This document shows positions 5,003-64,000 of a stretch of 64,000 bases of DNA, piece after piece; positions within the stretch are counted from its first letter, which is position 1, and each line of letters begins with the position of its first letter. This DNA is from an uncultured Gammaproteobacteria bacterium (GTDB lineage: Bacteria > Patescibacteriota > Microgenomatia > CAYXHB01). The notes under the pieces were generated by a model, which saw nothing but the letters and a program-made list of their open reading frames with translations, did not search any database and was not told the origin of the DNA. Position numbers and translations under genes: made by a program. The stretch is taken from the NCBI GenBank assembly GCA_964561945.1, contig CAZLQM010000002.1, positions 13,087 through 77,086 on the forward strand, given 5' to 3'.

Positions 5003-5075
5003 TGGTTGCGGGGCCGGGAGTCGAACCCGGCCTGAGAGATTATGAGCCTCTCGTGCAGCCGTACACTACCCCGCA
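5003..5075 (-). tRNA. tRNA with CAU anticodon (Met-type; possibly tRNA-Ile2/lysidine or initiator), encodes 3' CCA
   Basis: Manual fold gives acceptor UGCGGGG/CCCCGCA (U1:A72), D-stem GUGU/GCAC, anticodon stem AGAGG/UCUCU, loop CUCAUAA and T-arm CCGGG-UUCGACU-CCCGG. It lacks the 3 G:C anticodon-stem pairs typical of initiator tRNA. Confidence 0.8.
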
Positions 5076-5141: not shown

Positions 5142-5214
5142 GGCTACGTAGCTCAGGGGCAGAGCGGACGTTTCATAAGCGTCATGTCGGAAGTTCGAAT
5201 CTTCCCGTAGCCAC
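5142..5214 (+). tRNA. tRNA-Met (CAU), elongator type
   Basis: GGCUACGUAGCUCAG 5' end matches E. coli elongator tRNA-Met. Acceptor is GGCUACG/CGUAGCC, anticodon loop UUCAUAA and T-arm GGAAG-UUCGAAU-CUUCC. Confidence 0.85.
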
Positions 5215-46998: not shown

Positions 46999-47202
46999 AT
47001 GGACAATTTTGCAGATTCGCTGTATAAAATAAGAACTAGGCAAGGTAAGTTTGTTAGCCAAGTAAAGCTCTCAAAACTTTCTGGATACACTCAAACCTAC
47101 ATTTCGTTAATCGAAACGGAGAGAGTAAATCCAAGCAAACGTTGTAAAAGAGATCTTCTCCGAGCTTTGGGCGTAGATTCCCCTCATACCTATATTTCAT
47201 AG
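46999..47202 (+). CDS. XRE-family (Cro/C1-type) HTH transcriptional regulator
   Basis: LSKLSGYTQTYISLIETERVNPS matches the HTH_XRE pattern. 67 aa. Confidence 0.55.
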   Translation: MDNFADSLYKIRTRQGKFVSQVKLSKLSGYTQTYISLIETERVNPSKRCKRDLLRALGVDSPHTYIS

Positions 47203-47209
47203 AGAGAAT

Positions 47210-47600
47210 TAAGAAGATGTGTCGTCTTGGGTGCCCACCCTTGGCTTGCGGCCATCGTCTTGATTGTTTTGATAGAAGCGGTGAAACCCTAAGAAGTATC
47301 CGCAGGATCCCTTCAATATGAGTGATAATGCTCGAAGGGACGCCTAGACGTAACTAGGGATTGAGTCTAGGTAGAAGCCGTTGTTGCCCTAGCAAGGATG
47401 AGAGTGTAAGAACTGTACACACGGCAACCGTGCAGTCGCCAATGTGCAACCTCTTGAAAAGCCTGGGGTGAGGAAGAATCCAAGTCCTCAGATGCGTCCC
47501 TGAATGTAATTGCGGAGCTTCTATCAGCAAACACAAGACTACTAGGTATAAGGTTTTTCGGCATTAAATTGCCTAGGGGAACCTTATGCCTAATAAGGAA
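47210..47600. ncRNA. unclassified G-rich non-coding region with local hairpins (candidate structured RNA or element border/att region)
   Basis: ~400 nt with no convincing ORF. Composition unlike both host and neighbouring genes. Hairpins include CACGG-CAA-CCGTG. Confidence 0.25.
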
Positions 47601-47629
47601 AAAAATAATCAAATAACAATTTCAATCTG

Positions 47630-48286
47630 GTGCTAAACTATAGATATATGAACACATCCAAGAAAATTCAACTTACCCTCGTAATAATTGCCCTGATTGT
47701 TGTTGGTGTGTTGATCTGGAACAGGAAGAAACAAAGCCAGGTTGTAGCAAACATCAATAGTTATGAAGATTGTGTAGCTGCTGGCTATCCCATCATGGAG
47801 ATCTATCCAGAGCAATGTAAAACCCCAGACAACCGTACCTTCACCAGACAAATTTCAGCTACTGACGATTGGCAAGAACAAACCATTGAAGAAATTGGCC
47901 TTACCTTGCGTTATCCCGCCAACCTTATATATAGACAAGAAATTGCAGACAACGCTGGCACCATTCGAGCCGTTGGGTTTTACCTAGAGAACAATGATCC
48001 AAACAAACCTTACACCCTCTATGGACTCTACCAAGCAGATCGGCCAGCTACTATAGATGATCTAGAGAGAGCCAAGACTGAAATGGACACCGCCACTATC
48101 AAACCAGTGGAAGTTGATGGCTTTAGCGGTATTGAAGGATTGATCGAGGGTGAGAAAACCCGTTATATCACCACTCTACTAGTTGGCGATAAACTCTTCT
48201 CCGTTTCCACAATTCCACCAACTCAAGAAAACAAGACTATAACAGACAATATCTTAGCAACGTTTGCTTTTAACAATGATAACTAA
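47630..48286 (+). CDS. hypothetical secreted/membrane-anchored protein
   Basis: N-terminal TM/signal (IQLTLVIIALIVVGVLIW), no motifs. Confidence 0.4.
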   Translation: MLNYRYMNTSKKIQLTLVIIALIVVGVLIWNRKKQSQVVANINSYEDCVAAGYPIMEIYPEQCKTPDNRTFTRQISATDDWQEQTIEEIGLTLRYPANLIYRQEIADNAGTIRAVGFYLENNDPNKPYTLYGLYQADRPATIDDLERAKTEMDTATIKPVEVDGFSGIEGLIEGEKTRYITTLLVGDKLFSVSTIPPTQENKTITDNILATFAFNNDN

Positions 48287-48785
48287 CCTTGCATCTCAAC
48301 CCCTCATTTTGGTATTTTCCCTTGTCGTTTTGGCTGTTATCGCAGTATTGATTGGTAAAACTAAGCAAAAAACTAATCCTTCCAAATATAGCTACACCAA
48401 AAAAGATTTCTTCATGTCCCGAGCAGAACATGAGTGCTACGATGCCCTCATTCAAGCGGTTGGACACGACTACTATATCTTTGCCCAGGTACATCTACCC
48501 ACGATTGTCAGCCACACCATCAAAGGCCAGAGTTGGCATGGGGCGTTGAGTCACATCAACAGAAAGTCAGTTGATTTTGTTTTGTGTGATAAAAGCTATA
48601 TTTCCCCCAAACTAGCCATTGAGCTAGACGACAAGTCACACCAGGAGGAAGATAGAAAAATTCGGGATCAAGAGTTAGAGCGAATCTTATCCCAAGCAGG
48701 GGTTCCATTACTTCGTCTGGAGAATCACGGCAGTTTTGACAGTACAGCCATCCAAAAGCAAATTCAAGAAAAATTGCTCTCCTAA
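48264..48785 (+). CDS. DUF2726-family protein (restriction-endonuclease-like fold), N-terminal TM
   Basis: SRAEHECYDALIQAVGHDYYIFAQVHL ... VDFVLCDKSYISPKLAIELDDKSH...DRKIRDQELERIL matches the DUF2726 pattern. Confidence 0.6.
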   Translation: MLLTMITNLASQPLILVFSLVVLAVIAVLIGKTKQKTNPSKYSYTKKDFFMSRAEHECYDALIQAVGHDYYIFAQVHLPTIVSHTIKGQSWHGALSHINRKSVDFVLCDKSYISPKLAIELDDKSHQEEDRKIRDQELERILSQAGVPLLRLENHGSFDSTAIQKQIQEKLLS

Positions 48786-48833
48786 AACCAATTTTTATCG
48801 AGAGATATCTTTACTTTCGCTAGTGACAGACTA

Positions 48834-51263
48834 CTAGTGTTTTTTTACACGCTCCTCAATAATCTCCTGTAAAACCTTCAAGTCTGCCTCGTTCCATAGC
48901 CTAAACCGCACCTGCCCATACTTATTATCTCGATCCAGTACCGATTCTGACTTAGATAATCTCTCCCTCAACACGGCAATTTCTTCAGGTGTCGTAAACT
49001 GCAACTCCCCATATACCCAATGATTAGCGTAGTAATAAAACAAAATCATCTCATCGTCTTTTTTCAGACTATGATATGAACCTGCCCCGCCTTTTTGGAT
49101 ATACACCTCACCATCTGGGAACGTCTTATTTATCCATTCGGGAATACTAGCCACCGCACCCCGCACAAATTCACTCTTCACCCGAGCAATCGTTTCCTCT
49201 TCGGTTTCGGGCAACTTAATCCCTTTCTCCTTAATCTCTCCCACATTCCCTTGCTCAACCACCTTACTCGTAGCCCGCAATATCTGGGAAAACCACTCCA
49301 ACGCTGCCTCTCCATCCCGCTGCAACACCCGATCAATCTCTCGATTGTGCTTCACTGCATTGCGAAAATCTTTGTAAGCAATAAACCGTTTCTCCACCTC
49401 AAACTTAGATCTGAATATCTGCTCAAAGTATTTCCAGTTTTTCAGGATGATATTGGAGTAATCCATAATGTCACAAAACTCCAACAAATCCTTAACCGTC
49501 AGCTCTTCCCATTTCTTAGAGGGGTTCTTTTTTAGAAACTGCGTGATCTTCTTTTTAGCATTACCCTGCACATCAGAAGGTATCACCTTATCCCAATAAT
49601 CCTCACCCTCCTCATCCAAAAGCACCGCATTTATCAACGCCCGCAGTTGGATTTCTATCTCATCAATCGCCTTATTGGCATTATGTCCCGCCACCTGCAA
49701 AATCTTAGAACCCACCAGCCGCTCAAACTCATCGAAAATAGCCTGTGATCTATTCTGGATAAACTCACCATAGTCATTATTACGAATCGAGTCATCGTAG
49801 GAAATCAGTTGTGCATCCAACGCTTCCCTAAAATCTGGGTTTTCCTGATCATATTCTGCAAAATAGTCACTAGGGGCTTTCCTGCGAATCTCCTTGTTTA
49901 ATTCAGCAGGAATAAAACAGAAGTTGGATAACAAATACTCTCCAGGGATTTTGTTAGCTTTGAGATAGTGGCGGGGAAAGATGTGGTGTTTCTCAGGGCT
50001 ATTAAACTCAGCACAGATGTTTCGATCCAAAGCAAAAGCCTGGTTGGTTTTGAAGTGTCGAGGTTGACGTAAGGCCAACATACAGAAAAAAGCGTTGCGA
50101 ATAGCCGACTTGGTGCTGATCCTACTCTTGGCGATCTTGTCCTTATCCAACGTGATCGGATAACTAATCTTCACTTCCTTACCCTCAACCAGCTTATCAA
50201 ACAACACCCGCCGATCCTCTTCCATCCGTGTCTCACGGGAGGTAGCGTACCGCTCGCTCAATGCCGACTGCCAAAACCACTCATGCACTCGCTCAGTCAT
50301 CACTTTATCTAACGATCTCCCAGGGATCTTAAAGTACAAATAGGCCAGCAGTGAGATCATGGGTGGATACGGTACAAACTCGTATATCTTGGCTCCCAAA
50401 TTGTTAGACAAAAAATCAACCGATAGCTTGATAGCGTTGGCAATCTCTTCCCAGTGTTCCTTCAACTCTTCTTTGTTTAGCTGTAGTTGGTACGACTTCC
50501 TGCAATAACCCTTAATAATCAGTGATGCTGCATGAACCACCACCTCAGGCGGGATCTTGCCAAACCCTTTATCTTCCAAATACTTAGCCAACTTTAGGTA
50601 TTCAACCTTCAAGTCAAAATCCTCACCCCACGTACTAGCCACCACTAAGTCAAAAATAGATAGTCGTTTACCACCCTGATTGATCCGCTCAAATATCACA
50701 ATCGCCTCATCCAATTCCTTCTCCCGAACAAAGATAACTGATAACGGATAGCTGGAAAAAATGCTGTTACACTTATCAAAGATCCGTTTCCGTTGATCGG
50801 TTAGTTTGTTGTACATCTGGAACTTGTTGTCTCCCAAAATATCCCGCAGTGGAGCAGCGTTGTCATGTTCCCGATACCGAATCACAAATTTTTCCTTGTC
50901 AAAGTCAAAACAAATCTGAGAGTAATCAGTGCCGTTAATGGTTAAGCCCTTGATAGCAGCATAGAGGGAAGTTGCCCGTTGTTGGCCGTCCAAGATGTAG
51001 CGAATTGAAGTGTAGGTGTCAGGTGTGGGCAAATCCAGTTCGGCGATGTTTCGATAAAACAGGTTATATTTCTTGTCAGCATCCCAGACAAAAAAGCTTC
51101 CAATCGGATACTCCTTATAGATAGAATCCAACAACTTCACCACTTTAGATCGTTCCCACACAAAATCTCTCTGAAATCTAGGGATCCTCAAATGCCCATG
51201 CTCGATGTCATGGACAATATCTGATAGCTTTAACTCATCAACTTTTATTTTCTGTATCTGCAT
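48834..51263 (-). CDS. GmrSD-family type IV (modification-dependent) restriction endonuclease (DUF262 + DUF1524) with ~250-aa C-terminal extension
   Basis: DUF262 signature RIPRFQRDFVWE...LDGQQRATSL. DUF1524 His-Me signature SPEKHHIFPRHYL. Confidence 0.85.
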   Translation of the reverse strand: MQIQKIKVDELKLSDIVHDIEHGHLRIPRFQRDFVWERSKVVKLLDSIYKEYPIGSFFVWDADKKYNLFYRNIAELDLPTPDTYTSIRYILDGQQRATSLYAAIKGLTINGTDYSQICFDFDKEKFVIRYREHDNAAPLRDILGDNKFQMYNKLTDQRKRIFDKCNSIFSSYPLSVIFVREKELDEAIVIFERINQGGKRLSIFDLVVASTWGEDFDLKVEYLKLAKYLEDKGFGKIPPEVVVHAASLIIKGYCRKSYQLQLNKEELKEHWEEIANAIKLSVDFLSNNLGAKIYEFVPYPPMISLLAYLYFKIPGRSLDKVMTERVHEWFWQSALSERYATSRETRMEEDRRVLFDKLVEGKEVKISYPITLDKDKIAKSRISTKSAIRNAFFCMLALRQPRHFKTNQAFALDRNICAEFNSPEKHHIFPRHYLKANKIPGEYLLSNFCFIPAELNKEIRRKAPSDYFAEYDQENPDFREALDAQLISYDDSIRNNDYGEFIQNRSQAIFDEFERLVGSKILQVAGHNANKAIDEIEIQLRALINAVLLDEEGEDYWDKVIPSDVQGNAKKKITQFLKKNPSKKWEELTVKDLLEFCDIMDYSNIILKNWKYFEQIFRSKFEVEKRFIAYKDFRNAVKHNREIDRVLQRDGEAALEWFSQILRATSKVVEQGNVGEIKEKGIKLPETEEETIARVKSEFVRGAVASIPEWINKTFPDGEVYIQKGGAGSYHSLKKDDEMILFYYYANHWVYGELQFTTPEEIAVLRERLSKSESVLDRDNKYGQVRFRLWNEADLKVLQEIIEERVKKH

Positions 51264-51303
51264 ATCGTATTTTAGTAATTATTACTAAACTCAACACATA
51301 AGG

Positions 51304-54300
51304 CTATTTCTCTCCCGTCCAATCGCGGGCTAACAATTCTGCTTGCTCCAACATCGTCTTGGTTGCACTTTCCTGTTTATCTGGTGGATATTTGTACTTC
51401 TTCAACAACCGTTTTACATAAACTCGCAACCTAGCTTGAATACTCTCCTTAATCGTCCAGTCTATTGTTGTATTCTTGCGAAGCATCACCACCAACTCTT
51501 TAGCCATTGCCTTCAAGGTTTCATCTCCCAACTCTCGCACGGCACTCTCGTTGTTAGCTAGTGCATCATAAAAAGCCACTTCATCCTCAGTTAATCCCAA
51601 ATCTTCACCTTTGTTTTTCTCTGTCTTAATCTTCTTGGCCAGCTCTAACAATTCGGCAATAACCTGAGCTGCTTCAAGTGTGCGGTTTTGGTATTTCCTA
51701 ATCGTTTCCGCCAGCATTTCGGCAAAAGATCGAGACTTCACCAAATTGGTTCTTTCCATCATCTTTAATTCGTCATTCAAGAGTTTCTTTAACAGTTCCA
51801 AGGCCACGTTCTTGTGTTTCAAATTCTTCACTTCCTCTAAAAATTCCTCAGAGAAAATAGAAATGTCGGGAGCTTTGATGCCAGCTGCCGAGTAAATATC
51901 AACCACCGCATCAGAAGTCACCGCCGTTGAGACGATTTGTTTGATAGCTGCATCATAATCTTCATCTGTCGGGCCTCCTCCATGAGGTTCCATTTTGACT
52001 AATCCACTCTTAACAATCTGGAAGAATCCCACCTCGTCTTTAATCTCCAATGCCTTGTCGTGTGGTACTGCCAAAGAGAATGACTTAGATAGTTCAGTCA
52101 CCGCTTTCAAGTATCGTTTCTTTCCATCTGTTAACCCCAAAACAAAATCTGTAGCTCCCGAAATAACCTGAGTTCGCTCACCAGGAGTACCAGTAAAGTA
52201 TTTTTGATAGTCATATCCATGCAACATTCCCTTAACCACTTCATACTTTTCCATCAACACCGCCACCGCTTCATCCTGTGGGATAGCTGTTTCTTGTCTA
52301 TCGGTTTCGCTGTAGTAGGAGAGGGCTTCCTTCAGTTCAGGAGCAATGCCAATATAGTCAACGATCAAACCACCTTGCTTATCCTTATACACTCGATTCA
52401 CCCGAGCAATCGCTTGCATCAACCCATGCCCCTTCATCGGTTTGTCTACATACATAGTATGAAGAGAGGGCACGTCAAAACCAGTTAGCCACATGTCTCT
52501 TACGATCACCAACTTCAACTCATCCTCAGGATCTTTCATTCTTCGAGCCATTTCATCGAGTGCATGTTTAGGGCGAATGTGAGGCTGGAAGTTCATCGGA
52601 TCGGCAGCACTGCCTGTCATCACAACCTTGATAAACCCCTTGTTATCATCATCACTATGCCAATTGGGGCGAAGTTTAACAATCTCGTTATACAAATCCA
52701 CCGCAATTCTACGACTCATGGCCACGATCATACCCTTACCATCAATGGCTGATAATCTGTTCTCAAAGTGATCCACTAAGTCACGAGCTACCAAAGCAAT
52801 TCGTTTTTCCGATCCCACCATTGCTTCCAACCTTGCCCACTTACTCTTCAGTTTTTCCTTTCGCTCAACCTCTTCACCCTCGGTTAATTCTTCAAATTCT
52901 GGATCAATTCTTGGCTGTTCTTCTTTCTTCAATTCAATTCTGGCAAGTCTAGCTTCGTAATAGATCGGTACGGTAGCATTATCTTCAACTGCTCGTGTCA
53001 CATCATAAACATCAACATATTCACCAAACACTGCCCGAGTATTCCTATCCGTTAATTCAACAGGTGTACCAGTAAAACCAATAAACGAAGCGTTAGGTAG
53101 AGCATCACGCAAATGACGAGCAAACCCAGTGATAAATTCATACTGGCTTCGATGTGCCTCATCCGCAATCACCACAATGTTTTTCCGATCAGACAACATG
53201 GGGTATGAAGTATGGCCATTTTGAGGTAGAAACTTTTGGATAGTGGTAAAGATAACCCCACCAGAGGCTACATGTAGTAATTCTTGTAACTGTTCTCGAC
53301 TATCAGCTTGCTTGGGGGTTTGCCTAAGCAATTCACTACATCGAGAGAAAGTACCGAAAAGCTGTTGATCCAAGTCATTGCGATCCGTCAACACAACTAA
53401 AGTCGGATTGTTTAGCTCCTGCACCACTTTGCCTGAATAAAACACCATTGTTAGACTTTTACCTGATCCCTGCGTATGCCACACCACACCAGCCCGCCTG
53501 TCTCCCTCCTCTTTGGTAGCCTTCATAGTACTTTCGACTGCTTTATTAGTCGCATAGTATTGATGATAAGCCGCTGCCTTCTTGATAGTTTTATCGCCAT
53601 CCGTATCAAAGACAATAAAGTTTGAGATCAAATCCAGTAAACGACTCTTATCAAAAATTCCTTTAAGTAAGACTTCCAACTGTGGCAAGGCAGTAGGGGC
53701 AAGTTCTTCACCATCAACAGTTCGCCAACGAGTAAACCATTCGATACTTGCCGATATTGTACCCACTCGAGCATCAATTCCGTCACTGATGACGCAAAGT
53801 TCGTTATAGGCAAAGAGGGTAGGAATATCTTGTTTGTAGGTTTGAATCTGGTTGTAGGCGTTTTTTACTGTTGCCTTCTCATCCCCAGGATTCTTCAATT
53901 CAATCACCACTACAGGCAAACCATTCACAAACACTATTACATCTGGCCGTCTGTTGCGGTTGTTTTCAATGATCGTATATTGATTGACTGCCAAAAAGTC
54001 ATTTGATTCTAAATCCCCAAACTCAGCCAATTTCACCTTATCGCCAGCCACCGAGCCATCATCCCGCATGTATTCAACATCCACCCCATCACGCAAGTAT
54101 CCATGAAAGATCTTGTTGTTCATTACTAAACTAGGGGTGGCGTGGGCAACCTGCACCACCTTCTTAAATGCTTCTTCCTTGGCATCTTCGGGAATATCTG
54201 GGTTGAACTTGTTGATAGCACTTCGAAGTCTATCTACCAACACCACATCACCATAGCTCTCACGTTCTGGGTTCTCACCGTCCGGAGGAGGGGCAATCTC

Positions 54301-54384
54301 AGGGCCTCCAACCACTGAGTATCCCAGCTCTTCGAGCCAATCAAGGGTTGCTAGTTCTAGATCTGTTTCTGTGTATTTAGCCAT
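51304..54384 (-). CDS. hsdR: type I restriction enzyme R subunit
   Basis: N-terminal [22 protein letters not shown], helicase motif I TQGSGKS, motif II DEAHRSQ, 1026 aa. Confidence 0.95.
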
Positions 54385-54386
54385 TT

Positions 54387-55679
54387 TTATCTGCTTTTTT
54401 TTAACTTATTCAACATATTATTGAAGGTGTCTCTTAAGTCATCATAAGTGAATATCTTTATATTTTTTAGTGAGTTATTTAGTCTCTTAAAGTCATTTTT
54501 CATTTTTACCTTTTTGCTGTTACTAAAACTGCTGGTTTGTTTGCCTGCCAACATTGATCTAGAGCCAGCGATGATATAGACACTCGGCCTTACAGCATCA
54601 ACATTTATATTGTATTCATCTCTTATATTTTTGATTACTTCTGCTTCTCTGCCAACAACGGCATCAATATAATTTTCAGATTGTGAGACAGCTTTAGCTA
54701 TATCAGCATGCCAATAAAAATTGTTTCTTCCCGAATCGAAACTTAGAATCTGTGTTAGATGAGTTTTGATTTCATAAATATCCAAAAAACTATAAGTGTC
54801 CAAAAGTATGAAGTCTGGATAATTTACTTTTTTGTCTCCGAATACTTTTTCCTTTTCAAATCTATCGACATACCCAAAGTTAAAATACAAAATGTTATCT
54901 CTTAGGAAGCCTTGCCATTTATCTTCTAATCGTTTTGAGTTAGATTTTTGATTCAAGATCTTGTCGAAATCCTCAAGGATTTTTTCGAAATATATATAGT
55001 CAACCTCTTTCTTTGTAGCAACAATTTTTTCTTTGCTCTGAGTAGTCTGGTTTTTTAATGAGTTTGATAAAAGACTCGTGAGCTTATTCACCTCATCATC
55101 TGTCAAATCCGTGGCATTAACACCATATCGACTGAAAATTCTTGATATTTCCCCAGTCGGATATCTTTGTGTTGCTTTCTTAAATGCTGAAGGGAAAATA
55201 TCATATAAAAGATTATTTACAATCGTTTCTGACTCATCCTTATGCTTCGTAAGCATGTCTTTTATTTGTCTACGAGCTTTTTCAAGCACTTCGTAACTGA
55301 GAACAATTGTTCTTTTTAGTATCTGAGATGAACGTTTTTGTGATACTACCAATCTGTTAACACTGGGGTACTCCTTTTGGAGTTTATATAAAAGTGGGCT
55401 AAGCTCTCTGGTGAATCCATACCCCGTCTTATATGATTTAAGAAAACCTGGCGGTAACGTTTTTATAACAGCAACATCTTCATAACAGATTTCTTTGATA
55501 TTGTTATACTTTTGTTTCCCATCCCTCAGATTAAAAGGAAAGTGTGCTTCTTTATGCTTATAGACTTCTCTGGATTTCCTATCTATCGCTCCAGATTCAT
55601 CTGCATAGAAAAACACTGTTTTATTTTTTAGTAGCTGCTTTTGATACTCTGCCTTATCGACTTTTACGTTTTTATGCAT
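54387..55679 (-). CDS. protein with C-terminal Shedu/DUF4263-like PD-(D/E)xK nuclease-fold domain and unknown N-terminal domain
   Basis: [17 protein letters not shown]...[27 protein letters not shown]...[17 protein letters not shown] has the D...D/ExK...Q..Y arrangement of DUF4263. Start is 2 nt upstream of hsdR and 7 nt downstream of the ATPase. Confidence 0.5.
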
Positions 55680-55686
55680 ACATTGT

Positions 55687-57102
55687 TTACAGATTTATTT
55701 CTTTCAAATACTCACGCATTTTTTCTATTGAACTTCTCAGTGAAGTTGGACCTGGCCTACCATTATCCCGAGCGTGATGAATCTGATTTCTTATAAAAGT
55801 GTGTACACTAACCTCATTCGGATTACCCATCCAAGGTGAATTGGCTGGTTCATTATGTACTCGCTGGAAATAATCTACATCGTATGGTTTAATCTTTTTT
55901 CCTTGTCCGTTTTGATAATATAACTCCTCATATAGTTCGTTATGATATTCCTCGGTAGCCAATCCAAAAGCTAAAAAGTTGACTTCGCTAGACGAAATAT
56001 AGGGCAACAGTCTATCCTCCACTGGAACTACTGACACATCATTACCATTTTTTTTCAAAACATTTGCCTGCACTGATTCATTGAAAAACAACTGTTTTAC
56101 TAACAAGGGTGAATGTGTGGTTATTATTATTTGTGCAGTTTTAGAAAATTCGATCAATAAATCTACAAACTTACCTTGAAGCGATGGATGTAAATGCAAC
56201 TCTGGCTCGTCTATCAACACGATAAGTTGTTTACCACTCTGTTGAGAAAGATAGAAAGAATACAGCAATGAAAAGATCATCTCATAACCAGATCCCATCA
56301 TATCTAAAGGAATTTGTTGATTGTTTTCCTTCTTCTTAGCAAAAAAACACTTTCCAAATGGTTGCCAATTGTCAACAAAGTTGAGTGAAATCTTCGAACC
56401 GCTCACTTCCTCGAATTTATTGATTGCACTTACCAATAATTCATTTTCCACTGAAGCCTTAACCGCATCCAGCTTCGCACTTTCGTCTTCAATCCCATCT
56501 TCTTTACCCTTAATATACTGATAGTTGAAGTCCTCCATTAAACGATCAAAGCGGGTAGAGTTGTATGTCCCAGATCTAATTTGAAAAGTCCTATTTCGAT
56601 CCAAAAATAAAATATCATTTTCACTAAATCTTTGCCCCTTAAAAGGGTTGTTTACGTTAACACGAAGATCAGGACTGTTATCGCTAGGCTTCGACTGATT
56701 ATCTGCCTTAATAAATTTTTGATCGCTGACAACAATCGAAGATAAATATGATTGATTTCCTCTAGATCTAACACCCGCCTCAAAAGAAAAACCCTTCGCT
56801 TGAAATGAGCCTCTCGGCATTGTACCGTCAACCTCGAAGTTTCCACTAGCTAAGACTTCGATATGAGATTTCTTGTCAGGATCATCAAAATCCTGCAAAG
56901 AGAAACTCTCTGCCTTGTAATTCAAAAGTGGTAGTGCAATAGCATCGAGTAACGCTGTTTTTCCACAACCATTCTCACCAACAAACACAGAAAGGCCACT
57001 GCCCTCATTAGTGTCATCAGGAATGTTAATATCATCCAAAGTAAATATGCTTTCCGATGGAAATAGCCTAAAATTTTGTACTTTTATTGTTTTTATAAAC
57101 AT
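55687..57102 (-). CDS. ABC-type (AAA_15/AAA_21-family) ATPase with possible HEPN-like (R-x4-H) C-terminal tail; PrrC/OLD/PtuA/AriA-like
   Basis: IKVQNFRLF, Walker A GENGCGKTALLDAI, LIVLIDEPELHLHPSLQ (Walker B/D-loop), IIITTHSPLL (H-loop) and C-terminal FIRNQIHHARD. Confidence 0.6.
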   Translation of the reverse strand: MFIKTIKVQNFRLFPSESIFTLDDINIPDDTNEGSGLSVFVGENGCGKTALLDAIALPLLNYKAESFSLQDFDDPDKKSHIEVLASGNFEVDGTMPRGSFQAKGFSFEAGVRSRGNQSYLSSIVVSDQKFIKADNQSKPSDNSPDLRVNVNNPFKGQRFSENDILFLDRNRTFQIRSGTYNSTRFDRLMEDFNYQYIKGKEDGIEDESAKLDAVKASVENELLVSAINKFEEVSGSKISLNFVDNWQPFGKCFFAKKKENNQQIPLDMMGSGYEMIFSLLYSFYLSQQSGKQLIVLIDEPELHLHPSLQGKFVDLLIEFSKTAQIIITTHSPLLVKQLFFNESVQANVLKKNGNDVSVVPVEDRLLPYISSSEVNFLAFGLATEEYHNELYEELYYQNGQGKKIKPYDVDYFQRVHNEPANSPWMGNPNEVSVHTFIRNQIHHARDNGRPGPTSLRSSIEKMREYLKEINL

Positions 57103-57104
57103 AC

Positions 57105-57797
57105 TTAGCCAATAAGATCGTCAACTTTAATTTCACCCGCCAACATTAATGGCATAATTTTATTAATTATCGCTTTTATGCTTTTATTTCTGTCATGGAT
57201 TCTTAACATTTCTTCAGCAGTACTAGAAGATTGCTCGATAGGGACACCTAATAACTCCACATATTGGAGAGAACTAATAAAATTGACTACCTTATCTTGT
57301 TCTTCCAGAGTAGGTACTGCAATTTCGAACTCAAACAAATCATACTTATACAATTCAGGATAGGTTGAACCGTTCGCAACCTTATCAAGATACAACTTAT
57401 TCACCTTTAACCAGTAGGCGAGGTATTTTGGCCTTATCATTGGGCCACACTCGAAGTTAAGAAACCCTTGATTTGTGGCCATTGGAACGGAGTTAATAAC
57501 GACACAACCAACAGGTGCTCTTTTTGACAACATCACAGTTCCTGGCTGAAGAATTTTTGCTGAGCTACTTGCTATACCTTCATGAGTTACATATCTTTCT
57601 GTCGAACTCACATAGAGTTGTCCATCTAGATTTGTGATTTCTTTTGGGGTTAACCATGGGATATTCCCTCCCCAGTAGTTATCGTTTCTAGTACTCGGTG
57701 TACTACCACTGCTGACATTTTTAATAATGCCATCTTTTGAAGGCATTAGAGTACTTTTTAACCACTTTGTCGGTTGATCTAAATATGGTTTAGCCAT
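57105..57797 (-). CDS. hsdS: type I R-M specificity subunit, single-TRD (half-size) form
   Basis: GSTPSTRNDNYWGGNIPWLTPKEI...LQPGTVMLSKRAPVG pattern of an HsdS target-recognition domain. 230 aa. Confidence 0.85.
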   Translation of the reverse strand: MAKPYLDQPTKWLKSTLMPSKDGIIKNVSSGSTPSTRNDNYWGGNIPWLTPKEITNLDGQLYVSSTERYVTHEGIASSSAKILQPGTVMLSKRAPVGCVVINSVPMATNQGFLNFECGPMIRPKYLAYWLKVNKLYLDKVANGSTYPELYKYDLFEFEIAVPTLEEQDKVVNFISSLQYVELLGVPIEQSSSTAEEMLRIHDRNKSIKAIINKIMPLMLAGEIKVDDLIG

Positions 57798-59316
57798 TTT
57801 TTACTTTCAACAAATTTTCTTTAACTAATAGTGATAACTTTGTAACTTCATTTAAACGTCTTTCAATAATATCCATAGAGGTTACTAGCTCATCTTGACT
57901 TACCTCAATCTTTTCCTCATCACTAAAACCAACATACCTACCAGGAACCAGGGCATATTGATGTTCAGCGATTTCTGACAATTTTGCAGAGTAAGTAAAA
58001 CCAGAGGCATTTATATATTGTGGTTGAGTTTTCCATTTTTTATATTCATTGACTATTCGTGAAATTTCTTCGCTCTTAAATACCTTATGCGTTCTATCTT
58101 CCAGCACACCCCATGATCGAACATCAACAAACAACACCTCCCCTTGTCGGTTCCTCTCATTTGTCCTTTTGTTTCTTGTTACAAACCAGAGTGATGCTGA
58201 AATTTGTGTGTTGTAGAACAATTGTGTGGGCAGTGATATAACACAATCTATTAAATCGCTATCAACCAATGACTGTCTTATTTGTTTTTCAGATTTCTTA
58301 TTTGTTGACAATGATCCATTTGCAAGAACAAACCCAGCGATGCCTGTAGGTGAGAGGTGATGGATAAAATGCTGAATCCAAGCATAGTTAGCATTGCCAG
58401 TGGGCGGAGTGCCGAATTTCCACCGCACATCATCTTTGTATTTCTCTCCACCCCAGTCACTATCATTGAAAGGAGGATTGGCCAAAACAAAATCAGCCTT
58501 TAGATCTGGATGCTGATCTTTGGCGAAACTATCGGCATTTCCCTCACCTAAATTCCCCTCGATACCTCGAATAGCCAAGTTCATTTTGGCTAACTTCCAA
58601 GTAGTCGGATTGCTCTCTTGTCCGTATACCGCAATATCACCAACTCTACCGCCATGCTCCTCTACAAATTTCTCGCTCTGAACAAACATCCCACCACTAC
58701 CACAGCAGGGATCAAATACACGGCCTTTGTAGGGCTCTATCATCTGTACCAACAGCTTTACCACAGAAGCAGGAGTGTAGAACTCACCGCCACCTTTACC
58801 CTCGGCACTGGCAAATCTACCGATAAAGTATTCATACACACGGCCTAACAAATCCTTTGACTTTGATTCTTTATCACCCAAACCAAGAGAGCTAAAAATA
58901 TCAATAATTTCACCCAATCGTTGTTTGTTGAGATCAGGGCGAGCATACCTTTTAGGGAGAACGCCCTTAAGGCTCGGGTTTTCCTTTTCGATGGCGATCA
59001 TGGCATCATCCACAATCTTGCCGATTTCTGGCTTCTTGGCGTTTTGCTTTAGGTAATCCCAGCGGGCAATCTCTGGCACCCAAAATACATTTCTCGCCTT
59101 GTAGGCGTCTTTGTCTTCCCACTCACCGTCATAGGCTTCTGTGTCATTCTTGATGGATTGATAGGTTTCTTCGAAAGAATCGGAGATATATTTGAGGAAA
59201 ATAAGGCCAAGCACCACATGTTTATATTCAGCAGGATCCATGTGGCCACGCATCTTATCTGCTGCTGCCCATAATTTCTTTTCGAAACCAAGATTAGCTG
59301 ATGTTTGTTTTGTCAT
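57790..59316 (-). CDS. hsdM: type I R-M N6-adenine DNA methyltransferase subunit
   Basis: HsdM N-terminal domain, SAM motif DPCCGSGGM and catalytic VLANPPFN. Start trimmed from 59424 to the MTKQ Met to remove overlap with the Xis-like gene. Confidence 0.9.
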   Translation of the reverse strand: MTKQTSANLGFEKKLWAAADKMRGHMDPAEYKHVVLGLIFLKYISDSFEETYQSIKNDTEAYDGEWEDKDAYKARNVFWVPEIARWDYLKQNAKKPEIGKIVDDAMIAIEKENPSLKGVLPKRYARPDLNKQRLGEIIDIFSSLGLGDKESKSKDLLGRVYEYFIGRFASAEGKGGGEFYTPASVVKLLVQMIEPYKGRVFDPCCGSGGMFVQSEKFVEEHGGRVGDIAVYGQESNPTTWKLAKMNLAIRGIEGNLGEGNADSFAKDQHPDLKADFVLANPPFNDSDWGGEKYKDDVRWKFGTPPTGNANYAWIQHFIHHLSPTGIAGFVLANGSLSTNKKSEKQIRQSLVDSDLIDCVISLPTQLFYNTQISASLWFVTRNKRTNERNRQGEVLFVDVRSWGVLEDRTHKVFKSEEISRIVNEYKKWKTQPQYINASGFTYSAKLSEIAEHQYALVPGRYVGFSDEEKIEVSQDELVTSMDIIERRLNEVTKLSLLVKENLLKVKNG

Positions 59317-59344
59317 AATTTTCTTAATTCTCTTATTTAATTTT

Positions 59345-59536
59345 CTATCTATTACGCGAGATGTACGCTTCGATGTCTTTCTTGCGATACCGTCTATCTC
59401 CCACACCTTTGCGATTGCCCACACGGACGGCTTTGAGTAATCCCTGCCTGTCCCATCGCCGAAGCGTCTGGGTGCTTACATTCAAAATCTTTGCTGCTTG
59501 CTTAATGGAAAGCAATTCCTCAAGTTGTTCATTCAT
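59345..59536 (-). CDS. excisionase/MerR-type HTH (HTH_17) DNA-binding protein
   Basis: LSIKQAAKILNVSTQTLRRWDRQGLLKAVRVG. Confidence 0.65.
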   Translation of the reverse strand: MNEQLEELLSIKQAAKILNVSTQTLRRWDRQGLLKAVRVGNRKGVGDRRYRKKDIEAYISRNR

Positions 59537-59843
59537 ACAAGTTAATCTTTATTATACAAAATTGTTCAAACAAAAAGAATGTATAAATCTAGTTAGTGGC
59601 TAGTTTATTACCCCTACTTATTAACTGGATTCCTATTAACTCCAAAGACTATTTCTTACTGATTTTGCCTAGAAGTAATAGACTTGAAACAGAAATAACT
59701 AGGGATGTTCATAACCCTAGTTACATTTACAAAATATGTGTATGTAGGGATATAAACCCAAGGCTGACAACATCTCAGACAGACATGCTTTAAATTCAAT
59801 GGAGATCAAAATGTACAATCCTGCTGGGGAGGGGTATGCCTGA

Positions 59844-60083
59844 TCACTTATCTTCTTTCTTACTAAACAACGTTTCCTTAACTGGATAGTCATTGCTTCC
59901 ATATTCATCCAAAAAATCTTCAATCGCTTTTTGTGTAAACCTATACTTCCCTTTAGTGCCAGGCAACTTAACGTACTTGATTTGTTCATTACGACACCAA
60001 CGCCTTACGGTTTCACCGCTAACGCTAAACATTTTCATTAGATCTTCAACTGTGTACTTAAACTCAAGATTTATGTTGGACAT
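59844..60083 (-). CDS. excisionase/AlpA-type HTH (HTH_17) DNA-binding protein
   Basis: LMKMFSVSGETVRRWCRNEQIKYVKLPGTKGKYRF. Start trimmed to MSNIN. Confidence 0.6.
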   Translation of the reverse strand: MSNINLEFKYTVEDLMKMFSVSGETVRRWCRNEQIKYVKLPGTKGKYRFTQKAIEDFLDEYGSNDYPVKETLFSKKEDK

Positions 60084-60397
60084 AATAAGTAGGATTGTAA
60101 ACATTTTATGCACGCAATGCAACTAGTGCTTGACATTCAGTTAATAATTGTTAATAATGAGGTTATGTTGCATAACATGTATAACGTGCATAATAAGAAG
60201 GGATGTCAAACAACCAAGAGTGAATGGTTGGATGTACTAGCCCAGAAGATCGCCGAAGTTCGGTTATCAGAACTTGGGTTTAATTTCATCCCAGGCATTG
60301 CCCCTTACTTCAAAAGGTTCAGGAAAAGTCTGGAGGCTAAGGCCTTCATAGTTAAGAGTGTGAGTTTAGTAAGAAATGATCCAAATACTATAAAAAG

Positions 60398-60715
60398 ATG
60401 AAAAAACGTGCTTACGGTTTCGTTAGGTGGAACAAAGAGAAAAACTCAACTCCCCCTCTCGAAACACAGAAAGCACGCATCAATGACTACTGCAACAAAA
60501 ATAAACTCGAATTGGTAGAAACTTTTGTTGACACTTCATCCCCCGTTCATAGTGTGTTCGATCAAATGATGTCTAGGTGTAGGAAAAAAGACTCAATCCA
60601 AGAGATTGTAGTCACTAGCTGGGACAGGATTTCTGATGACGAAACCGAATTTTGCCTCATCGAAACTATCCTAGATCGAAAACATATTAAGTTAATCAAA
60701 TTGGAGGAACTATGA
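60398..60715 (+). CDS. resolvase N-terminal-domain-like protein lacking catalytic serine
   Basis: Collinear with serine-recombinase catalytic domain (..ELVETFVDTSS...IQEIVVTSWDRISDD), but the YxRVSxxxQ position reads FVRWNKEKN. Confidence 0.4.
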   Translation: MKKRAYGFVRWNKEKNSTPPLETQKARINDYCNKNKLELVETFVDTSSPVHSVFDQMMSRCRKKDSIQEIVVTSWDRISDDETEFCLIETILDRKHIKLIKLEEL

Positions 60716-61176
60716 AAAACAAAAAACAAACCAAGAAAGCAGTGGTGTACGCCAAAGTAGCATCACCAGCAGTAGATACTACCCAACAATCAACTGATTC
60801 ACAGGAAAGGGCATGTAGGGAGTGGGCAAGGCAAAATGGTTACGAAATTGTCGGCGAGTATCAAGACGTTTGCTTCAATGACTCAAAACTAGACGACAGA
60901 AAAGCATTGATTGATACCATTGCGAGATGTCAGAGCAAAACTAGCCCGATTGACGTATTGCTTGTTACAGATTTGGATAGGTTATCCAGAAACACCGTTG
61001 AGCTACTTTTTATCAAAAGCCAGATTGATTTGAACGGCACAAAAATAATTACTGTAAACCAGCAAATGACAGAAGATTTCACAAAAGGCCAGCTATTCGA
61101 ATCTGTTATCGCAAGTGCTAATGCTTTTTCTAGAACAATTGAAAGGAGGAAATATGAAAAAAGCAGTAATCTATAA
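60712..61176 (+). CDS. resolvase-domain paralog (N-terminal domain only, catalytic Ser apparently replaced)
   Basis: Residue-by-residue paralog of the downstream recombinase N-domain (AVVYAKVASP vs AVIYNRVSDA; VLLVTDLDRLSRN vs VLLVIDTDRLARN). SD GGAGGA upstream. Confidence 0.5.
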   Translation: MKNKKQTKKAVVYAKVASPAVDTTQQSTDSQERACREWARQNGYEIVGEYQDVCFNDSKLDDRKALIDTIARCQSKTSPIDVLLVTDLDRLSRNTVELLFIKSQIDLNGTKIITVNQQMTEDFTKGQLFESVIASANAFSRTIERRKYEKSSNL

Positions 61177-62644
61177 TCGCGTATCTGATGCGGGACAACT
61201 TGAGGGACAATCCTTAGAGGTACAGCAAGAGTTGTGTGCTAAATGGGCACGAGAGCACCAGTATCAAGTAGTAGGCGTGTTTACCGATGCAGCCAAGAGT
61301 GGCACCAAAACAGTCGGGCGTGAGGCTTTGGATGATGCCATTATTAGATGTACAGACAAATCTGATCCAGTTGATGTGTTACTTGTCATTGATACAGATA
61401 GACTTGCCAGAAACGAGGTTGATCACTTCTTTATCAAAAATGAATTGAAGAAAACCAACACTCGAATAGTGGCTATCAATCAACCGATGATAAATGATAC
61501 TGCTGAAGGCCAGTTTTTCGAAACCATCATGGCTGGCACCAATGCCTTTTATAGTAGATTGACAGGTAGAAAAGTTAAGAAAACCTTAGAGAAGAAATGC
61601 CGAGATGGTGATTGGCCAGGCCCTCCGCCGTTAGGTTATGTTAACGCCAACATTGGCACCAAAGACAAACCTCATCGAGTTATAAAGATTGATCCAGAAC
61701 GAGGAAAATACTTGACTGAGATGTTTCGGCTGTTTAGCACGGATAAATACAGTGTCGATCAGATCCGAGATATGCTCTATGAGGATGGATTGAGATCCAA
61801 AAATGGCAAAAAAGTGTCTCGCAGTTGCCTCTACAGCTACCTCAAAAATGTTTTCTATATTGGCAAGTTCGTATATAAGGATGAAGAGTACAGAGGAAAT
61901 CACAAACCACTTACCACCAAGACGATCTTTGATCTATGTCAGAAGATAATGGAGAGAAACAACCACAACGCCTGTAGACGAAGGAAATACAAATGGTTGC
62001 TTACAGGTGTGGCCTACTGTCATAAATGTGGCTCCAGACTGTATTGCAGCCATAACCACAAAAAGAAGATGGCCTACTATCACGGCTCATACCCTAAAGG
62101 TTGTAAGCAATATATACCATTGGAAGAGTTAGAGGATTTAGTAGCCGAAGAGTTGAAAAACATCAAGTTTTCAGAGGAGTTTAAGCAAAAGATACATGAC
62201 AAAGCCAAAGAGTTGATCCAACAGACAAGAGAGTCCCGAAATGAGGAGGTTCAGCGTCTAAGGAACAAGGTTAAGGCTCTAGAGACAAGAAGAAACATCC
62301 TAGAAGATAGCCTGCTGGATGGAACAGTTGATAAGGCCACTTTTAAGAGGAAGCATGGGGAGATCAACTATGAGATCCAGGGATACGAGAATGATATTGC
62401 CAATATCGAAAACCAGAGAGGCTTTGATGTTAATCTAGCCTCCGAGATACTCGATCTGGATACCAATCTATACGAAACGTACCAGAACGCCGTTTTTGAG
62501 GCCAAGAAGCATTATCTATCTATTTTCTTTGAAAAAATCGAGGTAGCAGACAAAAAGATCCAACATGTAACCTATTCGCCATTGTTTCAAAAACTACTTG
62601 ATGCCGAACAGGTTACAGTTAGTTCGAAAAGGCTCCCCGACTAG
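61154..62644 (+). CDS. large serine recombinase (integrase)
   Basis: Resolvase domain IYNRVSDAGQ...DRLARN, recombinase domain, Zn-ribbon CHKCGSRLYC, coiled-coil. Strong SD AGGAGG at 61145-61150. Stop codon lies inside the 3' end of tRNA-Asn. Confidence 0.85.
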   Translation: MKKAVIYNRVSDAGQLEGQSLEVQQELCAKWAREHQYQVVGVFTDAAKSGTKTVGREALDDAIIRCTDKSDPVDVLLVIDTDRLARNEVDHFFIKNELKKTNTRIVAINQPMINDTAEGQFFETIMAGTNAFYSRLTGRKVKKTLEKKCRDGDWPGPPPLGYVNANIGTKDKPHRVIKIDPERGKYLTEMFRLFSTDKYSVDQIRDMLYEDGLRSKNGKKVSRSCLYSYLKNVFYIGKFVYKDEEYRGNHKPLTTKTIFDLCQKIMERNNHNACRRRKYKWLLTGVAYCHKCGSRLYCSHNHKKKMAYYHGSYPKGCKQYIPLEELEDLVAEELKNIKFSEEFKQKIHDKAKELIQQTRESRNEEVQRLRNKVKALETRRNILEDSLLDGTVDKATFKRKHGEINYEIQGYENDIANIENQRGFDVNLASEILDLDTNLYETYQNAVFEAKKHYLSIFFEKIEVADKKIQHVTYSPLFQKLLDAEQVTVSSKRLPD

Positions 62645-62704
62645 GACTCGAACCTAGAACCTTGAAGTTAACAGCTTCCTGCTCTGCCATTGAGCTATCG
62701 GGGA
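62633..62704 (-). tRNA. tRNA-Asn (GUU)
   Basis: Manual fold gives acceptor UCCCCGA/UCGGGGA, D-arm GCUC-AAUGGC-AGAGC, anticodon loop CUGUUAA and T-arm CUAGG-UUCGAGU-CCUAG. Confidence 0.85.
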
Positions 62705-62829
62705 TTAATTTTTAAATAGCCAATACTTACAAAACCCAAAAAGTACCAACTGCACGCTATTATACTCAAAACCCCCAAATTTTAGAAACACTAAAAAACT
62801 CCTCCCGTTGTGATATAAATTTATCTACC

Positions 62830-63681
62830 ATGAACGAAACACCCTATCCCACAATCACCAGATTCCCCATTCCACCACGATCCACCGCCGAAAAGCTCAA
62901 GTCACACATCCATCAAGTCATAGACTTTGGAACAACTCAAGAAGATCAAAAAATCAGTCATGTACTTGAACAACTAACCCAAAAACCCCTACCCAAAGGA
63001 AAACTTCTTCAATCTAGCCTCAGATTTGTTCTATCCCATTTCCCGCAGAAATTTCGTGACAAACATTTTAATAATTACTTTGCAAACGCCCCAATCCCCG
63101 ACGATAACACCCAGCTTGAAGTCATAGGTGAAGGCGGAGTTAACAAAGTATTTGCCATCTCTCTGGACTCTCAATCACCTTCGATTGCAATCGGAATAAG
63201 TAAAAAAGATTTCGAATCCAAAGACGAAGCCTTTACATTTGCAGAACATCAACAACAAGAGCATGACTTAATCGCATCCTTCTTCCAACACATTCCTAAT
63301 GTTATTCCTGACGAACAATACGCTATTTTTCAAGGGCCTCGCCAAAAATATAACGTCATGCACTTCCAAAACTTTGTTGAAGGTCCAATCCGAGATTTTT
63401 TTGATATGCCCGCACAAGAACTCCAAGCATTAATCCAATCCAATCCTCAATTCAATGATCAACTTAAAAAATTTGCACAAACCTGCCATGAACATTCTGA
63501 TTTTTTTATCCAAAGCCAAATTGATTTCCTCGGCCCCAAGAATCTTGCCATAATTGGAAAAGAAGGTCGCGAACAATTATTATTCCTCGACCCGCACTTC
63601 CGACTCAGCGACCACACACCAGACAAAGAACAAGAAATTTCCAACCGAATTGACTATCTCAGTACTGTTGCAAATCTCTAA
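62830..63681 (+). CDS. hypothetical protein (host-like composition)
   Basis: 283 aa. VIGEGGVNKVFAI is faintly kinase-glycine-loop-like. No firm motifs. Confidence 0.3.
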   Translation: MNETPYPTITRFPIPPRSTAEKLKSHIHQVIDFGTTQEDQKISHVLEQLTQKPLPKGKLLQSSLRFVLSHFPQKFRDKHFNNYFANAPIPDDNTQLEVIGEGGVNKVFAISLDSQSPSIAIGISKKDFESKDEAFTFAEHQQQEHDLIASFFQHIPNVIPDEQYAIFQGPRQKYNVMHFQNFVEGPIRDFFDMPAQELQALIQSNPQFNDQLKKFAQTCHEHSDFFIQSQIDFLGPKNLAIIGKEGREQLLFLDPHFRLSDHTPDKEQEISNRIDYLSTVANL

Positions 63682-64000
63682 TCTCATCCTCCCAATCTAA
63701 TAACTACAATTCCCTCCAATCCAAAGACCCAATAAATATCTTATAGTATTGCAATAACAACTTACATGCAGTATAATCGCCAACAAGGTTTCTTGTATCA
63801 ATGATCTAGTCATTTTCGACCGGATTAATATACATCTAAACCGCTCTTTGAAAATCCAAGTTTATAAGAATTAGAAAAATCTCGTTTGCTTGTTTATCGT
63901 TTTAAAACAAGCCCCTGTGTTAGCATAAATTTAAGTTTTTCTTGTTCCCTTCGGGGACAGAAAGGAAGTGTCTCATGCGCAACTGGCGCAATCTTACATG

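Follow-up and report, generated by a model that had tools for sequence, protein, structure and literature searches.

The window analysed here is a stretch of 64,000 nucleotides (nt) from contig CAZLQM010000002.1, and all coordinates given for it are positions in that window. Its minus strand carries a type I restriction-modification (R-M) operon that reads hsdM, hsdS, a gene for an ABC-type ATPase, a gene for a protein of the Shedu (SduA) family, hsdR and a gene for a GmrSD-like type IV restriction protein (Table 1). A sequence-only reading had listed the same open reading frames (ORFs) at the same coordinates and in the same order, and had seen in the ATPase and Shedu genes an undescribed two-gene defence system. 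Our analysis supports the interpretation offered there in part, but not its central claim of a two-gene system. We find it probable that the gap between hsdS and hsdR holds two independent single-gene defence modules, which arrived separately and have nothing in common beyond a promoter and a mobile island.

The genes are tightly packed. As read from the sequence, hsdM and hsdS overlap by 8 nt, and the gaps are 2 nt between hsdS and the ATPase gene, 7 nt between the ATPase and Shedu genes and 2 nt between Shedu and hsdR. Junctions of 2-8 nt or overlaps had been proposed for the whole unit; this holds from hsdM through hsdR, whereas hsdR and the GmrSD-like gene are 40 nt apart. No convincing terminator was found inside the operon, where terminator-like sites are no commoner than in shuffled sequence. 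The mechanical ORF of hsdM reaches further upstream, to a GTG at 59424. Profile hidden Markov models (HMMs) bear out the domain calls made earlier, with HsdR, HsdS, HsdM and GmrSD_N far above threshold. A search of NCBIfam gave generic, below-threshold matches for the ATPase and none for the Shedu or the GmrSD-like protein.

The case for two modules comes from the company that each gene keeps elsewhere. On the ATPase side, 68 loci were taken from species-representative genomes, with homologues at 31-67% identity; on the Shedu side, 80 metagenomic loci and seven contigs of closer homologues gave 87 loci. None of the 68 ATPase loci has a Shedu gene by tblastn, with the same outcome by HMM profile, and tblastn for the ATPase in the 80 metagenomic Shedu loci returned nothing. 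Among the 87 loci with a Shedu profile match the ATPase is present in one, L152, which is closely related to the window (HsdR 84.5% and Shedu 89% identical). Its ATPase is 73% identical to the window's, no closer than the ATPases of unrelated contigs (74%). In the gene context of the other 86 loci, Shedu homologues at 27-71% identity stand without the ATPase. The order is HsdS-Shedu-transmembrane protein-HsdR in L153 (Shedu 71% identical to the window's) and HsdS-182-residue protein-Shedu-HsdR in L156 (47%); in L157 Shedu comes after an MmeI-like methylase, and in L151 and L155 it lies beside GmrSD-like genes. The co-conservation that a two-gene system calls for therefore fails, the sole joint occurrence outside the window being in a close relative. 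Because each gene occurs without the other nearly everywhere else, we take them to be stacked neighbours and not one system. Domains, folds, motifs and gene order, like this lack of co-conservation, are matters of observation.

The hsdS-hsdR slot of these relatives also holds other genes. In L153 (2117-2887) a gene for a multi-pass membrane protein of 256 residues follows Shedu, and in L156 (6463-7011) the gene for the 182-residue protein overlaps the Shedu start. For neither protein did Pfam give a significant match, or PADLOC any at all.

In an alignment of 57 homologues, the motifs of the ATPase head are invariant: Walker A (G42-T49, with K48), Walker B (D298/E299), the signature (G270, G272 and E274) and the H-loop (H330). 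The ATPase motifs quoted in the sequence-only reading are thus present and conserved. The head scores 1e-17 to 1e-34 with the PADLOC models for AriA, PtuA and GajA, and of the solved structures 6p74, an OLD nuclease, matches its sequence best. The signature had been described as common to OLD, PtuA, AriA and PrrC. Its AAA_15/AAA_21 character and its place in the OLD/PtuA/AriA clade stand; the PrrC-type AAA_13 is unmatched at E <= 0.1. Residues 161-185 (56548-56622), ENDILFLDRNRTFQIRSGTYNSTRF, are among the most conserved of the protein, with N162, L165, L167, R171, G178, N181, T183 and F185 invariant. The same residues have a model confidence (pLDDT) score below 50 in the predicted structure. 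They could form an interface that folds only upon dimerisation or upon binding of a partner or nucleic acid.

The C-terminal tail of the ATPase, about 110 residues and helical, fits the four-helix up-down bundle of the HEPN superfamily, to which it probably belongs. Within its FIRNQIHH motif, R438, H442 and H443 do not vary among 36 diverse sequences, even in relatives of 26-37% identity; a homologue on a Klebsiella plasmid (26% identical) retains FIRNHIHH. The stretch R438-N-Q-I-H442-H443 closes the third core helix, right after a hairpin insert. In HEPN domains the Rx4-6H motif ends helix 3, and an insert between helices 2 and 3 is common (Anantharaman et al., PMC3710099), so that motif and insert stand exactly where this positional rule places them. 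Foldseek of the domain against the PDB gave nothing significant (best E-value 3.7), hmmsearch of a domain profile against PDB sequences nothing relevant, and Pfam and PADLOC run on the domain alone zero matches. Since all these searches miss the domain, we consider the HEPN assignment well supported, not proven. An RNase tail of HEPN type had been suggested from the letters R-x4-H; the invariant motif, the bundle fold and the helix-3 position uphold its HEPN part, for which a match to a recognised HEPN family is lacking. The domain occurs only C-terminally, in proteins of about 420-560 residues, plus shorter entries that are probably fragments, and its family comprises 133 clusters at 50% identity. 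Proteins listed in connection with the tail are Cas13h1, two MNT-associated HEPN toxins, AbiA, HI0074, Las1, TTHA0636 and AF0298.

The second embedded gene is easier to place: judged by its sequence, its product is a bona fide Shedu nuclease. It matches Pfam SduA_C with 73.6 bits (cut-off 27), and the PADLOC SduA model PDLC00384 spans residues 66-428. Across 64 homologues of 23-89% identity, E252, W255, D289, K305, Q333 and G86 are invariant and E303 nearly so. A family profile matches the solved SduA structures 8ti8 (B. cereus, 3.3e-26) and 8ps4 (E. coli, 4.1e-24), and the E, D, ExK and Q residues line up with motifs I-IV of the B. cereus protein as defined by Gu et al. (bioRxiv 10.1101/2023.08.10.552793). 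The family profile was required for this, as phmmer with the single protein against PDB sequences gave noise only; a metagenome scan with the single protein likewise found nothing, and an alignment-based scan was then used. The PD-(D/E)xK C-terminus predicted earlier is confirmed by these matches. The N-terminal 270 residues had been called unassignable. The first ~190 have no Pfam family (a weak Peptidase_M41 match lies under threshold) and are common only to one PADLOC SduA subfamily model. Residence within an R-M locus is not unusual for such genes, 602 of 5,499 Shedu genes having been reported there (bioRxiv 10.1101/2023.08.10.552793).

The ATPase family is widespread. Its 68 loci span Patescibacteria, Zixibacteria, Omnitrophota, Bacteroidota, Clostridia, Bacilli and one Woesearchaeote, and identity within the family is 50-75% across very distant phyla. 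Nineteen of the loci lie between hsdM/S and hsdR. Occurrence inside other type I R-M loci had been proposed as a check and is thus found, as is, in the window and these 19 loci, the insertion point of prrC. In L020, L021, L023, L040 and L061 the ATPase gene directly abuts hsdR, lying upstream of it. HsdS lies immediately upstream in 10 of 34 non-redundant loci; in about 12 more that place is taken by a different DNA methylase or by a Res helicase or subunit. Downstream, a co-directional gene is missing from the next 150 nt in about 27 of some 60 loci; the others are heterogeneous, with SLFN/AlbA_2, Fic, RhuM, Mrr_cat, NUDIX and PRiA4_ORF3 among the neighbours. A TOPRIM, HNH or UvrD-like neighbour is found in none of these ~60 loci. 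Copies in L054 and L015 are monocistronic, the Klebsiella plasmid copy stands alone between two insertion sequence elements, and no R-M gene is near the ATPase in that plasmid, L002, L054 or L034-L036. The family also appears to extend into lineages with genetic code 25. Two contigs of metagenome-assembled genomes carry ATPase homologues with 11 (L049, 10001-11446) and 5 (L062, 9743-11206) in-frame TGA codons; in Walker A and the signature these fall on conserved glycines (SE*S*ITLFL*EN*TGKT, L*SGVEM, TGA written as *), which suggests that the hosts translate TGA as Gly.

Table 1. Features of the R-M operon and of the island around it (window positions).
Feature	Position	Strand	Evidence or detail
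hsdM, type I R-M methyltransferase	57790-59316	-	Pfam N6_Mtase 3.5e-103, HsdM_N 1.1e-29; PADLOC MTase_I 1.8e-205
hsdS, half-size specificity subunit, 230 residues	57105-57797	-	Pfam Methylase_S 8.2e-20, single stretch, residues 27-179; PADLOC Specificity_I 4.8e-40
ABC ATPase-HEPN fusion (HEPN probable), 471 residues	55687-57102	-	AAA_15 2.1e-32, AAA_21 7.5e-26
HEPN-like C-terminal domain of ATPase, residues 362-471	55690-56019	-	R438-N-Q-I-H442-H443 motif
Shedu (SduA) nuclease (by sequence), 430 residues	54387-55679	-	Pfam SduA_C 2.6e-20; PADLOC SduA PDLC00384 1.4e-26
DUF4263 / PD-(D/E)xK domain of Shedu, about residues 250-415	54435-54932	-	E252, D289, E303-I-K305, Q333
hsdR, restriction/translocase subunit, 1026 residues	51304-54384	-	HSDR_N, SWI2_SNF2, T1R_D3-like, T1RH-like_C; PADLOC REase_I 1176 bits
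GmrSD-like type IV restriction protein, extra C-terminal region, 809 residues	48834-51263	-	GmrSD_N 1.3e-31; PADLOC PDC-M55C, HEC-05, PDC-M34B (residues 531-661)
DUF2726 (restriction-endonuclease-like) gene, island edge	48264-48785	+	Pfam DUF2726 5.9e-29
HTH_17 excisionase-like gene	59844-60122	-	Pfam HTH_17
Three serine-recombinase genes	60398-60715, 60712-61176, 61115-62644	+	Pfam Resolvase, Recombinase, Zn_ribbon_recom
tRNA-Asn	62631-62704	-	ARAGORN

Several points weigh against two independent modules. The ATPase and Shedu genes share an operon, with 7 nt between them, and their order is repeated in L152; a functional coupling of the two in the window's lineage is conceivable. The closest ATPase homologues (L159, 75%, and L160, 73%) each have a gene for a Cas4-like PDDEXK_1 protein 1-8 nt downstream, and in L003 an Mrr_cat gene follows the ATPase gene within 8 nt. 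Counting Shedu, three PD-(D/E)xK families lie directly downstream in a minority of ATPase loci, which could hint at a swappable effector of the ATPase. Many of the metagenomic contigs are short, and some absences reflect truncation. Further, RNase activity, latency and trigger are things that we infer for the ATPase, as is crosstalk with the R-M enzyme. The close spacing, the L152 order and the PD-(D/E)xK neighbours would suit a system in which the ATPase is the sensor and Shedu the effector, possibly with both RNase and DNase output and kept latent by the R-M complex, and pairs of an ABC ATPase with a PD-(D/E)xK protein do exist, e.g., HEC-02 with its NERD protein. We regard such a system as unlikely here. 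Besides the counts given above, a Shedu gene occupies the same slot in L153 without the ATPase, the ATPase bears a conserved effector-like domain of its own and occurs alone, and Shedu is by published experiment a single-gene system. Spacing does not discriminate, because all junctions of the operon are equally tight, and L159 and L160 count as a single lineage, given the 86% identity of their neighbour proteins. The swappable effector is accordingly retained as a minority rival only: most loci have no PD-(D/E)xK gene, and PADLOC has the L003 Mrr_cat protein as a single-gene candidate in its own right (PDC-S02, 2.6e-147).

The ATPase might also be no toxin at all but an accessory or regulatory R-M subunit, whose helical C-terminus binds nucleic acid or protein non-catalytically and modulates restriction, e.g., in DNA loading or sensing. 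The strong linkage of the gene to type I, II and III R-M genes is what such a role would predict; some HEPN domains are indeed non-catalytic binders (PMC3710099), the tail has no HEPN match by Foldseek or sequence profile, and the conserved, poorly modelled residues 161-185 could mark a partner interface. We find a dedicated subunit decidedly improbable. The invariance of R438, H442 and H443 down to 26% identity is what a catalytic Rx4H motif should show, copies exist with no R-M gene nearby, and association with R-M systems of unrelated enzymology argues against a dedicated role in any of them. It is less likely still, to the point of being remote, that either embedded gene, or both, is a passenger in decay without current function. 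Defence loci do serve as sinks for inserted genes (Payne et al., 2024), and the G+C content of the Shedu (0.329) and ATPase (0.367) genes, like that of hsdS (0.375), is under that of hsdR (0.438) and hsdM (0.413). The lower values of the cargo genes are consistent with a later insertion. Both ORFs are of full length with every catalytic motif intact, and identities of 60-75% between the ATPase and its homologues in distant phyla imply strong purifying selection.

With two independent modules as the preferred reading, each protein may be given a mechanism of its own. In the ABC-HEPN protein, ATP binding would cause the ABC heads to dimerise and thereby gate the HEPN domains, bringing two Rx4H motifs together to cut RNA. 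The putative RNase would be latent until a phage signal arrives, for which the most plausible candidate is interference with the adjacent R-M enzyme or with DNA; once released, it would cleave tRNA or mRNA and abort the infection. We propose the latency on the model of PrrC, which EcoprrI keeps silent and the Stp peptide of phage T4 sets free (PMC3710099; Payne et al., 2024). Shedu would act separately as an autoinhibited, oligomeric PD-(D/E)xK DNase, freed by its own N-terminal sensor region, as the analogy with solved SduA suggests. A more ambitious proposal can be made, which we offer as a speculation and consider unlikely: that AAA_15-type ABC-HEPN proteins are portable, PrrC-like guard RNases posted on type I, II and III R-M systems across bacteria of the Candidate Phyla Radiation, Bacteroidota, Bacillota and others, firing when phage anti-restriction factors disable the neighbouring enzyme, and that in the window's lineage the protein is perhaps wired to the Shedu DNase for a coordinated RNase and DNase abortive response.

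The mobile island shared by the two modules has recognisable borders. Of the serine-recombinase genes two are short and one is of full length with a zinc ribbon, and tRNA-Asn overlaps the end of the last by 14 nt. Because the R-M/defence block is bounded by the excisionase-like gene, the three recombinase genes and the tRNA gene, we place it on an integrative island, which looks as if it had inserted at tRNA-Asn. Base composition changes along the window. In every 1-kb bin of positions 1-46000 the GC skew, (G-C)/(G+C), lies between about -0.3 and -0.6, with long ORFs on both strands; so strong a skew, whatever the strand of the genes, is unusual. From about 47 kb on (47000-64000), across the defence island, it is about -0.29 to +0.10. 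The coincidence of this break with the island suggests that the island was recently acquired. Outside the island, two tRNA-Met (CAT) genes lie divergently on opposite strands, 66 nt apart (5003-5075, minus; 5142-5214, plus).

Two other products of the operon deserve comment. HsdS has a single target-recognition domain. Like truncated HsdS proteins in general, it would need to dimerise and would read a symmetric bipartite site. The GmrSD-like protein has, in the region matched by PDC-M34B, the sequence FRNAVKH, an RNxxxH motif, and this stretch may give the operon a second domain of HEPN type. A GmrSD-like gene adjoins Shedu in L151 (1359-3851; protein 57% identical to the window's), and others lie 639 nt downstream of Shedu in L085 (11675-13411) and about 2 kb away in L155 (9449-12007). 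The association of Shedu with GmrSD recurs more than that of Shedu with the ATPase.

We would class the locus as single-gene defence modules of known kinds, stacked in an R-M operon at a slot whose cargo varies. Shedu genes inside R-M loci, and embedded defence genes generally, are already in the literature. Since these tightly packed, complementary-looking genes are separate cargo, we name no new system from the locus, and it illustrates how adjacency of genes in defence operons can mislead. The more useful lead is the AAA_15-type ABC-HEPN family, which is widespread, R-M-linked and uncharacterised, with an effector domain for which neither Pfam nor PADLOC has a model. Should its members act as PrrC does, RNases guarded by R-M enzymes would reach far past Enterobacteria and type I systems, and annotation pipelines would gain a new single-gene model.

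Fusions of an ABC ATPase with a HEPN domain in R-M operons were catalogued in 2013 under the names PrrC, RloC, APECO1_4465 and ERFG_01251 (Anantharaman et al., PMC3710099), and it is with these that the window ATPase is best compared. It shares with PrrC and RloC an N-terminal ABC-type ATPase and a C-terminal HEPN-type domain (Rx4-6H) in one polypeptide, and with PrrC of the E. coli prr locus (hsdM-hsdS-prrC-hsdR) the insertion between hsdS and hsdR. RhuM- or Fic-type genes are often nearby, as in the group of PrrC, RloC and APECO1_4465 (PMC3710099). The head differs, in that it is of the AAA_15/AAA_21 kind and nearest to OLD, PtuA and AriA. AAA_13, which it fails to match, is the Pfam family that covers PrrC and RloC. 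The contexts differ too, the window family being linked also to type II and III methylases and Res genes and sometimes solitary. ERFG_01251 has an extra N-terminal HEPN/TOPRIM-NTD1 domain that is not seen in the window ATPase; the comparison with it and with APECO1_4465 is by description only.

Among the systems with a similar head, OLD, Gabija (GajA), PARIS (AriA) and Septu (PtuA) share the ABC domain of the AAA_15/21 clade. Unlike them, the window ATPase has neither a TOPRIM domain nor a conserved TOPRIM, HNH or helicase partner; its effector would be the fused helical HEPN-like domain of ~110 residues. The Shedu protein resembles its solved relatives (8ti8, 8ps4) in motifs I-IV of DUF4263, in having a family-specific N-terminal region, in being encoded by a single gene and in often being embedded in R-M loci; it differs in that its N-terminal ~190 residues match only a subfamily model of PADLOC SduA. 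Finally, defence systems embedded in others have been collected together with the HEC candidates (Payne et al., 2024). HEC-02 and its like share with the window the nesting of ABC-ATPase genes inside a multi-gene restriction system. There, ATPase and nuclease are treated as one system, whereas in the window the nuclease next to the ATPase shows no co-conservation with it.

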